A DNA stretch of 64,000 nucleotides from an uncultured Patescibacteria group bacterium. Lineage in GTDB: Bacteria; Patescibacteriota; Minisyncoccia; Phycocordibacterales; UBA918. Location: the NCBI GenBank assembly GCA_934699595.1, contig CAKUWT010000002.1, forward strand, positions 37,065 to 101,064, in the 5' to 3' direction. Under the pieces are notes generated by a model. That model had not been told where the DNA came from. It made no database searches and was given only the letters and a program-made list of their open reading frames with translations. Both the position numbers and the translations under genes were made by a program. Positions 4,747 to 10,268 of the stretch are shown here, one piece after another (position 1 is the first letter of the stretch; every line of letters starts with the position of its first letter).

Positions 4747-5298
4747 AAATATAATTTTTTGTTACACCGTTTGGATAGATACGTGCTTGGCAAAAGTAAT
4801 TAGGCCGCCCACTCCGTGGAGTAACTCCAGTAACCTGCGAAGGTCGCTGATTACTATAGCACAATCAGGTTAATATTTCAAGCTTCAGCCATAAATCCTA
4901 GTCTGTGAAACTGACGAAAATAAGCTTGTAGAACTTAGGTTTCTCAAGGAAGTGTTTTAGGTAATTGAGTATCCTCCTCACGACGTGATAACCCATCACT
5001 GGAGAGATGCCAAAGTTTCCCTGCTCACGGGTAGTTAAACAGAAAATGTAAAAAGTGGGTCGACAAGAAATTTCCTTCAGCGTGATTCACGTTGAACAAC
5101 AACTGACTGAGAAAAGAGTGACGGAAACGAGGGGACCATTTCTTTTTCAGAAGAGAGGCACGGTCAAGTGGAAGAGGTGGTGTCTAGAAACTATAAAAAA
5201 TGTGGGTCCCCTAGTGTATGGGGCAGGGAGTAGGTTTTGCTGGTCACCGATAAACTGGCCGATCGCTGAGAAATGTTGAGAGAGAAACTAACAGAGTA

Positions 5299-6240
5299 AT
5301 GTTAAAATGGATTGACATGGACTGGCAAACTTCATTGAAAGATTTTCAACAATATTTAGAAATTGAACGTGGTCGTAGTCAGGCGACGACTGAAAATTAT
5401 TTACGCTACTTGCGTAAGTATTTCCAGTTTGCCAAAATCAGTTCCCCGAGTGAGATTACTGAAGTTAGTGTTCGGGAGTGGCGGCTGCACTTAAACCGCT
5501 TACCAGGAACTAAAGTGGGTGGTCGTCAGGAACCGATGAAAAGACGAACTCAAAATTATTACTTGATAGCACTAAGAGCCTATTTAAAATTTTTACGAAT
5601 GCGCAATGTAGAGAGTTTGGCGCCAGAAAAAATCGAACTAGCCAAAGTGGCCTCGAGACAAATTGACATCATTACCGCTGCTGAGTTAGAGAGATTGTTG
5701 TTAGCTCCAGATCCGGCCACCCCGCAAGGCTTGCGTGATCGTGCTGTGCTACAGCTCCTCTTCTCGACGGGGCTTCGGGTATCTGAGTTGTGCTCTCTTA
5801 ACATTGACGATATTGATATGGAACGTGACGAGTTCTCGATTCGAGGTAAGGGAGAAAGGGTGCGGGTGGTGTTTTTGTCGGAGACTGCTAAGCGTATGAT
5901 TCGTGATTGGTTAGCGACGAGGGAAGATATTGAGGAGGCTCTTTTTATACAACTAGGAAAACGTAGCGCGGCCGATGGTAGTCGCCGGCTGCAGCCACGG
6001 GCAGTGCAGCGACTTTTGAAAAAGGCGGCAGTACTGGCTGGTATTACCCGTAAGGTGACACCACACACTATCCGTCACAGTTTCGCTACCGATTTGTTAA
6101 GAAACGGGGCCGACCTGCGAGCAGTTCAAAGCATGCTTGGACATGCTGACATCAGTACTACTCAGGTCTATACGCACGTGACTGATGCCCATTTACGAGA
6201 AGTTCATAAAAAATTTCATCACCGCAAAAATCAGGATTAG
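5299..6240 (+). CDS. Tyrosine site-specific recombinase, XerC/XerD family
   Basis: 313 aa with an N-terminal SAM-like domain and a C-terminal catalytic domain (RHSFAT..LLRNGADLRAVQSMLGHADISTTQVYTHV). Confidence 0.85.
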   Translation: MLKWIDMDWQTSLKDFQQYLEIERGRSQATTENYLRYLRKYFQFAKISSPSEITEVSVREWRLHLNRLPGTKVGGRQEPMKRRTQNYYLIALRAYLKFLRMRNVESLAPEKIELAKVASRQIDIITAAELERLLLAPDPATPQGLRDRAVLQLLFSTGLRVSELCSLNIDDIDMERDEFSIRGKGERVRVVFLSETAKRMIRDWLATREDIEEALFIQLGKRSAADGSRRLQPRAVQRLLKKAAVLAGITRKVTPHTIRHSFATDLLRNGADLRAVQSMLGHADISTTQVYTHVTDAHLREVHKKFHHRKNQD

Positions 6241-6303
6241 CAGAATAGAAATGCCCTCGCTAGTTAGCAAGGGCATTTTTAACAAATAGGGACTAGAGTT
6301 AAG

Positions 6304-6633
6304 TTAAAGTTTTTTTTCGAACTCAACCAAGAGAGCCAGCTTCCGTCTCAGTTCTCGTTTTGGATCTTGAGACCGTAGTAACCAAGCATGATTTTGCCAA
6401 GCGTGGCGGTAGCATTCACGGTTATGGAAAAAGAAGGGATGACCCCAGATAAACATCCGGAGGTGTTTCGGAGATTCTTCGCAGATAGCTCCGCGACAGC
6501 CGCAGATGCAAAGACCGTCCCTGTTGGTAAAGTTGAAAACGTGGTCGAGTACCGCAGCTCGATCTTCTCGATGGATAATCTTCCAGTACTGTTGATCTCC
6601 AGTCTGGTCAACCATCATGTTGCTGTAGTCCAT
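6304..6633 (-). CDS. Small Cys/His-rich protein; possible YHS/TRASH-like metal-binding fold; paralog 1
   Basis: 109 aa. It shares R.AVLDHVFNF..R...CICGC...H..M.IWG...FFH...C.R.A...DP..ELRR.LA with 6820..7131. An AGGAGG SD sits 8 nt upstream of the ATG. Confidence 0.45.
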   Translation of the reverse strand: MDYSNMMVDQTGDQQYWKIIHREDRAAVLDHVFNFTNRDGLCICGCRGAICEESPKHLRMFIWGHPFFFHNRECYRHAWQNHAWLLRSQDPKRELRRKLALLVEFEKKL

Positions 6634-6768
6634 TTTCCCCTACCTCCTGATTCTGATTCAGATCTGAAGAGAAGCTTACTGAATGTAGTAATTGGTGTCA
6701 ACTCATTGCCAAGTATCCCGCCCCGACTGTTTTGCTGGTCAGGGTTGTTTACGCTTTGGATTTAAAAA

Positions 6769-6793
6769 ACGGGTCCAGAATTTCTGGACCCGT
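6769..6793 (-). terminator. Hairpin terminator between the two paralogs
   Basis: ACGGGTCCAG-AATTT-CTGGACCCGT stem-loop flanked by an A/T run. Confidence 0.5.
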
Positions 6794-6819
6794 AATGGTG
6801 TCACTGTGGTCGGTACACA

Positions 6820-7131
6820 TTACATGATGACGTGTACCGCTAGGCGGCGCCTAAGCTCGTGCCGGGGATCTTTTCCTCGCTTCACAGTTTCGAGAACTTT
6901 TCTCGCGCGCCGGTGGCAGCGGAGCGAGTGAAAGAAATAGGCTCGTCCCCAGATACTCATTTTAGAGTGGTCTCCCAGACCACGATGGCGAATAGGTTGT
7001 CCGCAGCCGCAGATACAGACATCGCGCCTGTCTGCAAAATTGAAAACATGGTCAAGCACGGCCGTGCGGTTTTTTTCACGTATTATCACATCGCACTTGT
7101 TGCTGGTGTCGAACAGGTTGACAATATTCAT
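6820..7131 (-). CDS. Small Cys/His-rich protein; paralog 2 of 6304..6633
   Basis: 103 aa with the same conserved CICGC/FFH..C motif. A GAGGAGAGG SD lies upstream of the ATG. Confidence 0.45.
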   Translation of the reverse strand: MNIVNLFDTSNKCDVIIREKNRTAVLDHVFNFADRRDVCICGCGQPIRHRGLGDHSKMSIWGRAYFFHSLRCHRRARKVLETVKRGKDPRHELRRRLAVHVIM

Positions 7132-7260
7132 TCGTCCTCTCCTCTTGCTGAAACTTTCTTCTAGGTAAAATCATACTCAGCCGGAGCGCCAGTGTCAATT
7201 TTTGGTACTCATATATAGATGAGTACCAAAGTACATATTATCTTCTAACTAACAAAACAC

Positions 7261-7284
7261 GCCCCCGAGACTGGACTCGGGGGC
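7261..7284 (-). terminator. Rho-independent terminator
   Basis: GCCCCCGAG-ACTGGA-CTCGGGGGC stem, followed on the minus strand by a T-rich tract. Confidence 0.6.
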
Positions 7285-7303
7285 GCTATGGGTGGTGACA
7301 GCT

Positions 7304-7690
7304 TCAGTAAGCAAGATAGCCGATTCGCATACCGTTGCTCCAAGCCTCCACAATTTGAAAAGTGATTCCCCGGCGGCTGGTCCAGTGTCCAATAGGACGT
7401 TGGTAAATGGGGGTTGGCATCACCACGAAACCGCAGCCGGGACCACTGGGGCTGAGTGCCTGTCTCCGAACATGGACCTTGTTGAGAAATGAGTGTAAGT
7501 TTCTCTTTGAGGTACAGACAGACAGAGCATTCCTCAGAATGATACCTTGGGCTAGGTGAAGATCGGCCGCAGCTGCCTGGTTGGTAAATACCGCCGTGGT
7601 GACCTCGGCGGCGGCCCCGATTGAAGGGTTGCCAAGCAGTAAAGTCGCCGAAGTCAGTAATGTACTGATGACCTTTTTGAAAAAAGACAT
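7304..7690 (-). CDS. Hypothetical secreted protein with an N-terminal signal peptide
   Basis: 128 aa beginning MSFFKKVISTLLTSATLLLGNPSIGAAAE. An AAGGGAGG SD lies 7 nt upstream of the ATG. Preferred over the overlapping 189-aa R/S/P/G-rich ORF. Confidence 0.5.
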   Translation of the reverse strand: MSFFKKVISTLLTSATLLLGNPSIGAAAEVTTAVFTNQAAAADLHLAQGIILRNALSVCTSKRNLHSFLNKVHVRRQALSPSGPGCGFVVMPTPIYQRPIGHWTSRRGITFQIVEAWSNGMRIGYLAY

Positions 7691-7853
7691 GACGTGCCTC
7701 CCTTGTGTCTGATGTCTTCCGACTTTGATTAGACCATATTTTAATTAGAAAAACAATAAGTGCTGTTATTATGGTTAGGGAGTAAAAAGAACGGGAACGC
7801 GGATGCTTTTGCATCCGCGCCCTCGTTCCTTATTAGGGTCCATAGAGTAGCCT

Positions 7854-10268
7854 CTATAAATCATCGACCTCAAGCACAATCTCACCCCCCTTCTCTACTT
7901 GCCCGGCAATAATTTTGTTAGTCGCTGTATCCTCAATTTTTTCTGCAATCAAACGCTGTAAGGCACGTGCCCCAAAACGGTCGTCGTAACTGGCTGCAAT
8001 CAGAGTTTTAATAAACTCAGTACTCACGCGTAGTTTGTAGCCACGATCAGCCATCGACTTTTTAAGTTTATCAACCATTAGGTAAGCGATCTGAAAATAT
8101 TCGTCAGCATTCAAGGGTTCAAAAACCACCACATCGTCAAAGCGATTGATAAGCTCTCGTCGGAAGATACGGTTCTTGATCAGGTTGTCGACAACCGCAC
8201 TTTCAAGTGTGGGTGCGTCCATGCGGGCGGAGGTTGTATGAGCAATTAAATCCGCGGCCGCATTACTGGTTGCGATGATAATGGTGGTACGCAAATTGAC
8301 CCGCTCTCCGCGACCATCGGTGAAAAATCCCTCGTCAAGCATTTGTAGAAATAGATCATGGACGGACTGAGTAGCTTTTTCGAATTCATCAAACAGTAAA
8401 ACAGCATAAGGTTGCTGGCGAATTTTATCGGCCAAAGCTCCCGTCGCCCCTTTTTCACCAATCAGCTTTGCTAAACCGTCTGCCTGACTGTACTCCGACA
8501 TATCAAAACGAATCATGGCATTTTGATCTTTGAACAACACTCGCGATAGTGATTTGGCCGTTTCGGTTTTCCCTACCCCAGTTGGTCCCAGGAATAAGAA
8601 AGAGCCAATCGGTCGTTCAGTTTGACTCATTTGTAGACGAGCTCGGCGCAAGGCACGCGCGATACTGTTAATAGCGGCATCCTGCCCAATCACCTGGCAG
8701 TGCAGCTCGTCTTCCAGACCGAGCAATTGATCGCGTTCAGTATCGTCAATCGGTCCCATCGGTATGCCAGTTTTTTCACTAATATATGTATAGACAAAAT
8801 CTTCCTGCACCAAGTTAGTTTTTTGGCTCCTGACCACGCCGCTGATTTCAGCAAGAAAATCCAAAGCTCGGTCACTGAGGGTTTCCTGTTGTAGGCTGCG
8901 CTTACTTCCGGCCAGAATAGCCTCAAGAGCTGGGTAGGTAAAATAAACTCCCTGATAAGAAAGGTTCCTTGCGGCAGCTTCTAAAAGAGCAAGAACTTTT
9001 TCATCGCTGAGTTCCTCCACCAGGATTTGCTCAAAGCGCCGCACTACTCCACCGAGTGGGGAAATATGTCGATGGAAATTAGCGGGGGTGTCGGTGGCAA
9101 TAATATGTAAACCAGTCATGGCCAAATAATCATCAATCACAATTGGCAAACTCACTTGGTAACGAGCTGTCAAAGCCATCATGTCACTGAAGTTTTCAAT
9201 GATTATGGTGAGATTACCAGCTTCAGCCACCTGATCGAGAATGTCGTGAAAAGCAGCCTCGAGGTCAATCTGGTTTGGATAAGTTAGCACCAGCTTCTCT
9301 ATATCCAGAGGGATTAAGTGTTGTCCCGACAGAGCGTTGAGTGCACGTCCGGAACGAAGTCGCTGTTCAACCGCTAGCAAAATATCCATTTTACCTACCC
9401 CTTCATTACCTATGAGGAGGACATTACTGGCACGGCTATTAGCTAGGGCAACTTCAATTTTTTCAATCTCTGGCAAAAATTGCTTTTCAGCGGAAACTAA
9501 ATTAGCAAATGTGGCGTTAGCACGGAGAGGCTTAGAAAATTCTTCTAAGGCATAGGAATAACCGTAAACCAGTTCTCTTCCTAGGCCGCCGTGTCGTGAT
9601 AAATTATCTCGACTCCACCACCGTTCTCGCCGTAGCGATTCCTGGTGACCGCTGACCAACCAGCGAGCAGTTTTTAGAAAAGTAGCGGGAGTGACGCCTT
9701 CAGATTGAATAAAGTCACTAAAGCCAGTATCTTGCTTAAGGATAGTTTCAGCCAGGCTCCTTAGGGTGAAAGTTTTGGTGGGTAAAGGGATTTCAGTAGT
9801 TTGTAGACGGCGTCGTTCTGGCTGGTTTACCCAACTGTCAACCTTATCCAGATCAAGACCAGCTTGCCAAGCGATGCGTCTGCCCCAGAGAGATTCTAAA
9901 AATTGTCGAGTGAGGTCTCCTTGGTCGGGAATAAGAGTGTCGGCCACTGCAAAAGTAATCCCAGCCTGTGCTTTGTTGTGACTGGCAATAACTGAGTCTA
10001 GACCCCGAAAGTAGAAGCTGTTGCTGTAGGTGTAAACTAAGATTTGCTCTAACCATAAAGCGAAGAGGATCAGATTCAGTCCTAACCAGCGGGGATGATA
10101 CCAATCTGGATATATGGTTAGAGAAAGAATGAGGAAGATCAGTGAGAGGCAAAGTAGGTATAGCAAGGTTAGCCGCAGGCGACGTAGAAATGACCGTGTC
10201 GCTAAACGGTTTAGGATTACGAACGTGCGAAATTGGTTTAGAGTAGAGGTTAAATTTTTCTGATACAT
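7854..10268 (-). CDS. Clp/Hsp100-family AAA+ ATPase (ClpB/ClpC-like) with an N-terminal transmembrane region
   Basis: 804 aa with two AAA+ modules. NBD2 has a canonical Walker A (GPTGVGKT) and Walker B (LLFDEFE). NBD1 has GNEGVGKM and IIIENF. The N-terminal roughly 90 aa are strongly hydrophobic. Confidence 0.85.
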   Translation of the reverse strand: MYQKNLTSTLNQFRTFVILNRLATRSFLRRLRLTLLYLLCLSLIFLILSLTIYPDWYHPRWLGLNLILFALWLEQILVYTYSNSFYFRGLDSVIASHNKAQAGITFAVADTLIPDQGDLTRQFLESLWGRRIAWQAGLDLDKVDSWVNQPERRRLQTTEIPLPTKTFTLRSLAETILKQDTGFSDFIQSEGVTPATFLKTARWLVSGHQESLRRERWWSRDNLSRHGGLGRELVYGYSYALEEFSKPLRANATFANLVSAEKQFLPEIEKIEVALANSRASNVLLIGNEGVGKMDILLAVEQRLRSGRALNALSGQHLIPLDIEKLVLTYPNQIDLEAAFHDILDQVAEAGNLTIIIENFSDMMALTARYQVSLPIVIDDYLAMTGLHIIATDTPANFHRHISPLGGVVRRFEQILVEELSDEKVLALLEAAARNLSYQGVYFTYPALEAILAGSKRSLQQETLSDRALDFLAEISGVVRSQKTNLVQEDFVYTYISEKTGIPMGPIDDTERDQLLGLEDELHCQVIGQDAAINSIARALRRARLQMSQTERPIGSFLFLGPTGVGKTETAKSLSRVLFKDQNAMIRFDMSEYSQADGLAKLIGEKGATGALADKIRQQPYAVLLFDEFEKATQSVHDLFLQMLDEGFFTDGRGERVNLRTTIIIATSNAAADLIAHTTSARMDAPTLESAVVDNLIKNRIFRRELINRFDDVVVFEPLNADEYFQIAYLMVDKLKKSMADRGYKLRVSTEFIKTLIAASYDDRFGARALQRLIAEKIEDTATNKIIAGQVEKGGEIVLEVDDL

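Follow-up and report, generated by a model that had tools for sequence, protein, structure and literature searches.

Analysis of the window, the whole 64-kb stretch of DNA under study, revealed two small adjacent genes on the minus strand, which we have designated A and B, located between a convergent recombinase gene and an ORF encoding a protein with a signal peptide. The features of this locus, with their coordinates in the window, are as follows:

5299..6240, plus strand: gene for an Xer-type tyrosine recombinase, convergent with B (Pfam Phage_integrase, 1.7e-48)
6246..6281: hairpin between the convergent B and xer genes, with 17-nt arms that are 88% complementary
6304..6633, minus strand: gene B, an ORF encoding P0002 (109 aa, pI 8.7), a paralogue of A
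6373..6519, minus strand: core of B (residues 39-87) matching that of A, placed by alignments
6643-6648: Shine-Dalgarno sequence of B, AGGAGG
6673..6701, minus strand: promoter-like site of B, TTGACA-17-TAAGCT, read from the sequence
6769..6793, minus strand: intrinsic-terminator-like hairpin 3′ of A, with an 11-bp stem followed by a T run
6820..7131, minus strand: gene A, an ORF encoding P0001 (103 aa, basic, pI 10.6)
6877..7026, minus strand: predicted TRASH-like treble-clef core of A (residues 36-85)
7135-7144: Shine-Dalgarno sequence of A, GAGGAGAGGA
7170..7198, minus strand: promoter-like site of A, TTGACA-17-TATGAT, near-consensus with 11/12 matches
7201..7230: palindrome of 30 nt 5′ of A, TTTGGTACTCAT-N6-ATGAGTACCAAA, with 12-bp perfect arms, abutting the -35 box of A
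7304..7690, minus strand: 128-aa signal-peptide ORF upstream of A, conserved in a related genome
7854-10268, minus strand: gene for a Clp/ClpB-like AAA protein of 804 aa

The sequence-only reading had described A and B as tandem paralogous minus-strand genes, each with a Shine-Dalgarno sequence and a terminator, next to an Xer recombinase and a secreted protein, and each of these elements was located as described. BLASTP alignment of the two proteins showed 47% identity (40/86, E 3e-25), which is far above chance, and both contain the pattern to which that reading had drawn attention, AVLDHVFNF..R...CICGC, then 15-16 residues, then IWG..(Y/F)FFH(S/N).(R/E)C. The protein encoded by A is identical to a database entry from NCBI/ENA. 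A codon alignment of A and B gave a saturated pS of 0.85 against a pN of 0.38, and 27 of the 43 residues identical in the two proteins are written with different codons. As pS greatly exceeds pN and a syntenic orthologue (P0004, described below) was found, A and B are real genes under protein-level selection. Neither protein has a signal peptide and both are therefore taken to be cytoplasmic.

The aligned upstream regions of A, B and P0004 share an invariant -35 hexamer, TTGACA, which lies 61 nt from the start codon in P0004 and 62-68 nt from it in A and B. With expression signals of their own, A and B are each predicted to be transcribed separately, as monocistronic genes. The hairpin between B and xer (6246..6281) is probably a bidirectional terminator for the two genes, and a comparable hairpin is present between P0004 and its xer gene. 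The palindrome at 7201..7230 occurs once in the 64 kb and was found in none of 100 shuffles; it has no counterpart upstream of B or P0004. As no T run follows it, this palindrome appears operator-like and not terminator-like, and it is possibly an operator. A search of Rfam found nothing at the gathering score, and the region between 6000 bp and 7500 bp gave sub-threshold noise alone. The GC content was unremarkable.

An exact 13-nt direct repeat, GTTTTGCTGGTCA, is present at 5234-5246 and 6729-6741, with a spacing of 1495 nt, and flanks xer and B. With up to one mismatch allowed, 0.1 occurrences of this sequence are expected per 64-kb window and three were found, including both exact copies. 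It was considered as an att-like site and rejected: the match does not extend past 13 nt and is missing from the related loci. The repeat could be what remains of a junction left by duplication or recombination; alternatively, it could be due to chance.

A third member of the family, P0004, was identified on a JGI metagenome contig (locus L001) as a single-copy orthologue with approximately 35% identity to A. It had been called as a protein of 111 aa; its true length is probably 107 aa, judging from an ATG that follows GGAGAGGG. The gene order at this locus is CCA-adding enzyme, exonuclease III-like protein, cold-shock protein, a 128-aa ORF, the Clp-like AAA protein (6025-8439, the counterpart of 7854-10268 in the window), small secreted or membrane ORFs, P0004, a convergent xer gene, rpsO, NYN and pnp. 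P0004 thus occupies the same syntenic slot as A and B, in the block from AAA to xer, S15, NYN and PNPase, and at approximately 35% identity its reading frame and start context are retained, as are its promoter and terminator. The AAA proteins of the window and L001 share 64% identity, compared to approximately 35% for P0004 and A, which suggests that the small protein is fast-evolving yet constrained. Comparison of the three genes gave pN values of 0.38 (A-B), 0.47 (A-P0004) and 0.54 (B-P0004). As A and B are nearer to each other than either is to P0004, their tandem duplication appears to have happened within this lineage, with B as the faster-evolving copy. The duplication would be old, and the promoter seems to have been copied along with the gene.

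The family is very rare. A full HMMER search with the A+B profile of 1.84 billion cluster representatives (approximately 15 billion proteins) revealed three true members in total. A word-index protein search with A alone returned only A, and the three-sequence profile returned the three members only. Scans of GTDB species genomes and IMG/VR with degenerate patterns gave no family member, tblastn against 50,697 phages gave no match, and plasmids gave only chance-level matches (E>=0.09). Similarly, no family member was found by six-frame hmmsearch of 80 distant metagenome loci that had been collected with the AAA profile (<=42% identity). In the relative L086, the AAA protein of which is 48% identical, the slot holds xer and two unrelated ORFs of 111 aa and 151 aa, and in the relatives L087-L089 (AAA 43% identical) it holds two Peptidase_M14 genes; none of these encodes a family member. 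The contigs of a relative with 63% AAA identity stop at the AAA gene. The named homologues of the AAA protein belong to Candidatus Paceibacterota, Parcubacteria and Kaiserbacteria, which places the host in the candidate phyla radiation (CPR), and the family is a clade-restricted orphan of such Paceibacteria-type bacteria.

A protein of 1480 aa (P0003) matched the A+B profile with an E value of 5e-11 and was rejected as a member. The score summed 19 weak stretches and pairwise BLASTP gave an E value of 10; the protein consists of approximately 25 tandem copies of a 58-aa unit (containing VWSHKYYLGAMQGRGQ and, further on, EWCSYGPTNTIQERCRG) and is without CxCxC. Multi-stretch matches of short Cys-containing profiles therefore need a pairwise check. 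An independent Logan assembly (L082, run ERR7738460) was 100% identical to the window between 4854 bp and 13268 bp. The gene calling of this assembly missed A and B and called a different ORF, of 69 aa, instead. As this pipeline missed both genes, the small genes of the family may be under-represented in protein collections built from such calls.

The recombinase encoded at 5299..6240 also has XerD/XerC/XerA-like matches in NCBIfam. The signal-peptide ORF on the other side of A (7304-7690) aligned with a 158-aa protein of L001 (40% over 83 aa, E 2e-16 by BLASTP) and gave an in-frame tblastx match. The version carried in public collections is an overlapping ORF of 189 aa (7245-7814, minus strand). 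This call is probably wrong, since the 128-aa frame is the one conserved in L001; 7304-7690 is probably the conserved ORF. The N-terminal region of the 804-aa AAA protein is hydrophobic, and Pfam matches the protein well over the second AAA module only; it is described here as a membrane-anchored Clp-like protein. Its gene is always preceded by a cold-shock gene and by a conserved ORF that belongs to no known family and measures 128-131 aa in the closer relatives. Between the AAA gene and rpsO, close relatives carry xer and small ORFs, and more distant Paceibacteria carry two M14 peptidase genes; the backbone is conserved and the slot within it is variable. The closeness of A and B to xer and the secreted ORF reflects this variable chromosomal slot and not an operon. 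Nothing in the neighbourhood of A and B suggests a partner or substrate.

Alignment of A, B and P0004 revealed the following invariant residues (numbering of A): C39, C41, G42, C43, I47, H55, G62, F66, F67, C72, R74, P89, L93, R94, L97 and A98. The candidate metal ligands of A are C39, C41, C43, H55, H68 and C72, to which C42, C44, C46, H57, H70 and C74 correspond in B. The ligand pattern is C-x-C-G-C, 24 residues, and then F-H-S-x2-C in A, F-H-N-x2-C in B or F-A-D-x2-C in P0004. H68 of A, the His of "YFFHS", is accordingly not invariant, as it is replaced by Ala in P0004 (FFAD), and the YFFHS element noted in the sequence-only reading is not a feature of the family. The canonical YHS/TRASH motif, C(D)-x2-C...14-30 residues...(F)C(S)-x2-C (PMC4047054; PMC4626032), differs from that of A, B and P0004 in the spacing of the first pair and in the third ligand, and agrees with it in the last Cys and the CG..I context. 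C43 would match the second Cys in the CxxC-G of a canonical knuckle, with C39 or C41 standing in for the first. The third ligand position would be taken by H68 or by nothing and the fourth by C72. In A, CGQPIRHRGLG parallels CGTDIEPGTG of archaeal eL24 (eL24 sequences taken from the PDB), and GRAYFFHSLRC parallels GATTHFCSSKC of eL24 and GERYHFCSDGC of the phenol hydroxylase YHS domain.

No recognised family was found for A and B, and the sequence-only reading had not recognised the exact family either. A Pfam hmmscan with full-length A and B at E<=10 returned 0 families, NCBIfam gave no match, PHROGs and PADLOC gave 0 hits each, and a scan of IMG/VR found none. The PDB sequences were without a match to phmmer and profile hmmsearch. 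Searched by themselves, the cores of A, B and P0004 gave only chance hits in Pfam (Vwaint 0.092, zf-C6H2 0.16 and DUF6527 0.097), each core a different one. No TRASH-type protein was found in the loci retrieved for comparison. The resemblance to the YHS/TRASH module that the same reading had noted, and for which it had proposed an HMM search and structure prediction as checks, stood in part. The HMM search went against it: none of the YHS/TRASH families of Pfam clan CL0175 (PF04945, PF08394, PF06467, PF01246 and others) gave a profile HMM match near the gathering threshold, and none matched the cores of A, B or P0004 at E<=10. An hhalign comparison of the family with five PDB eL24 sequences was not significant (11 columns, P 0.18), with the aligned columns in the FxS..C region and in the expected register. 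Foldseek against the PDB returned nothing significant, the top matches being toluene monooxygenase alpha subunits. Although the individual fold scores were weak, the matches gathered in a single small family among 48,164 chains. Such modules were located with a generic YHS string in 2inn_A (420-448), ToMO (418-444), eL24 and 9d2f_A.

The motif and the structure prediction were the parts of this resemblance that stood. AlphaFold2 (AF2) was run with the three-sequence alignment of A, B and P0004 as input. The model of full-length A (pLDDT 75.7, pTM 0.67) showed a beta strand at residues 3-7, a second at 13-18, a helix at 19-30, a Cys knuckle, beta strands at 57-60 and 63-66, and helices at 70-85 and 91-99. 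Modelling of the core alone (residues 33-88, pLDDT 75.3) gave the same hairpin and helix. The knuckle, hairpin and helix that this check returned at a pLDDT of approximately 75 form a predicted treble-clef topology, with H68 and C72 at the helix N-terminus. The AlphaFold output may be the mere reproduction of a learned zinc-finger motif. Most likely, the cysteine-rich core folds like a TRASH/YHS metal-binding finger. The cores of A, B and P0004 would be TRASH-like in motif and in predicted fold, but not by HMM membership. As to what the sequence-only reading had said would tell against it, namely the lack of conserved homologues in any other genome together with a lack of expression, or a confident assignment to a known family, the syntenic P0004 was found and no family matched.

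Our preferred reading, to which we give a probability of roughly 0.55, is that A, B and P0004 are zinc-stabilised treble clefs in which a basic helix and the C-terminal helix bind nucleic acid or protein. We infer the fold (from a model of moderate confidence), that a metal is bound and which one, and the binding partner. The CxCGC knuckle would give the first ligands; its last Cys and the G-x-x-I that follows would represent the second Cys of CxxC-G, with one extra Cys replacing the first canonical Cys. The beta-hairpin (IWG..YFF) would come next, and the site would be closed by the (His)-x3-Cys pair, located where the long basic helix begins. The knuckle would be clamped to this helix by a single metal ion, most likely Zn(II) in a structural role. 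The three proteins are all basic (pI 8.7-10.6), A and B being of approximately 12 kDa, and their positive charge is concentrated in two helices, the one that follows C72 and the conserved one at the C-terminus (P..eLRrRLA), which would together form a surface for a nucleic acid or protein partner.

The candidate ligands, three adjacent Cys, the invariant H55 and C72, exceed the needs of a single structural Zn, and a CxC motif is characteristic of Cu(I) thiolate sites. Both points would suit a role in metal trafficking or sensing, of the kind proposed for TRASH/YHS proteins that stand alone: the Cys cluster would bind Cu or Zn/Cd reversibly, and the protein would serve as a metal chaperone, a buffer or a sensor. 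NosL, a copper chaperone, and YHS modules are among the nearest fold matches, and a mycobacterial adenylyl cyclase has a YHS domain that works as a Cu sensor (PMC4626032). However, neither a P-type ATPase (DKTGT) nor an MxCxxC or CxxC...CxxC protein was found in the 64-kb window or the 20-kb L001 locus. The predicted monocistronic arrangement of the genes also speaks against such a role, and strongly basic proteins with a conserved Arg-rich helix suit a binding protein better than a chaperone. We consider metal trafficking or sensing, the main alternative to our preferred reading, unlikely. The same residues could be read more boldly, with the CxCGC triplet, H55 and C72 (and H68 here) as a new type of centre carried by a TRASH scaffold (for example Cu(I)-thiolate, binuclear or Fe-S) in a metal- or redox-sensing mini-regulator of a small CPR clade. 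This is quite unlikely; in such a case the palindrome at the A promoter might be the operator of the mini-regulator.

The family gene is always convergent with, and directly beside, an xer-type gene, the AAA-to-rpsO interval differs among relatives, and the 13-nt direct repeat brackets xer and B. From this it could be argued that the small genes are cargo of a mobile or recombinase-associated module and encode a small regulator, an anti-defence protein or a toxin/antitoxin-like protein. The recombinase, however, is Xer-like, and three genomes carry it at the same place on the chromosome; in one of these the small gene is missing. The 13-mer, with no extension and no copy in the relatives, the unremarkable GC content, and the searches of PHROGs, PADLOC, the phages, the plasmids (chance-level matches) and IMG/VR likewise weigh against a mobile origin, which we judge decidedly improbable.

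That A and B are metal-free Cys proteins, in which CxCxC and the distal Cys form disulfides or a redox switch and the likeness to a treble clef is superficial, appears very improbable. The absence of a signal peptide places the proteins in the cytoplasm, where structural disulfides are uncommon, and the four invariant Cys are located exactly at the knuckle and the helix N-terminus. In favour of this alternative, the fold assignment is weak and some treble clefs, for example Lsr2 and NosL/MerB, have lost zinc (PMC4999995). That A and B are spurious ORFs or shadows of opposite-strand genes, as might be argued from the long antisense ORFs that overlap both of them (6388-6765 and 6859-7164, plus strand) and from their omission by the Logan gene caller, has next to no chance and is in effect refuted by the synteny of P0004, with its retained frame and signals, and by the codon comparison, in which pN was far below pS in the minus-strand frame, as well as being opposed by the Shine-Dalgarno sequences and terminators of both genes.

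If the zinc-stabilised treble clef is the right fold, the family shows that the TRASH/YHS treble clef can drift far yet keep its architecture. The drift here would comprise the CxCxC knuckle, a third ligand that is His or missing, and added N- and C-terminal elements. The family adds a lineage-specific small protein, predicted to bind metal, to the poorly understood proteomes of the CPR; the genomes of these bacteria are very small, yet this one retains two diverged copies. The practical value is modest: two hypothetical proteins gain a name and a testable hypothesis, and the gene call of a neighbour is corrected. The reach is narrow, with three members in approximately 15 billion proteins, and no long-standing question is opened.

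The TRASH domain reportedly goes back to Ettema et al. 2003. L24, YacG, YHS and the NosL/MerB fold have been grouped as TRASH treble clefs, and Lsr2 is a treble clef as well (PMC4999995). The Pfam TRASH clan also includes zf-FCS, MYND, HIT, DUF329 and L24e (PMC4047054), and toluene-4-monooxygenase has a YHS domain (PMC4626032). Compared to YHS (PF04945) and TRASH, the family shares G..Y.F[H]S..C with the G..Y.FCS..C of phenol hydroxylase YHS and eL24, but has a C-x-C-x-C knuckle in place of C/D-x2-C and a spacer of 24 residues. The third ligand is His (A and B) or Ala (P0004), and there is an invariant extra His, H55. A beta-beta-alpha extension at the N-terminus and the C-terminal P..eLRrRLA helix are specific to the family, which shows no link to Cu-ATPases or other metal genes. 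The archaeal and eukaryotic ribosomal protein eL24/Rlp24 (PF01246) is a single TRASH treble clef that binds rRNA. It is likewise small and basic, with CG..I..G.G and G...F[C/H]S..C in register. In the structural superposition, 38-39 residues were aligned at 1.7-2.1 A. Its C-terminal R.P..L.WT motif, however, is missing from A, B and P0004, and the similarity did not extend to the whole-domain profile. The family cannot be a core ribosomal protein, as it is present in just two bacterial genomes.

Among the remaining systems, the zf-FCS/MYM/FLZ fingers (CX2CX14-30FCSX2C), some members of which act in protein interaction (PMC4047054), share F-x-S-x2-C after a hairpin with the family; the Cys of FCS is His or Ala here, the knuckle spacing is different and there was no HMM match. 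YacG (DUF329), a zinc-finger DNA gyrase inhibitor of approximately 65 aa, has the arrangement C-x2-C...C-x3-C and an acidic or Trp-rich tail; its sequence similarity to A, B and P0004 is nil and there is no sign of a link to gyrase here. The NosL and MerB proteins are duplicated and fused TRASH-derived treble clefs that function as lipoproteins or enzymes and are encoded in nos or mer operons, none of which applies to A or B. Set beside these systems, A, B and P0004 would represent a divergent, clade-restricted finger with an unusual CxCxC and a dispensable third ligand, in an unremarkable genetic context, and not a categorically new system.
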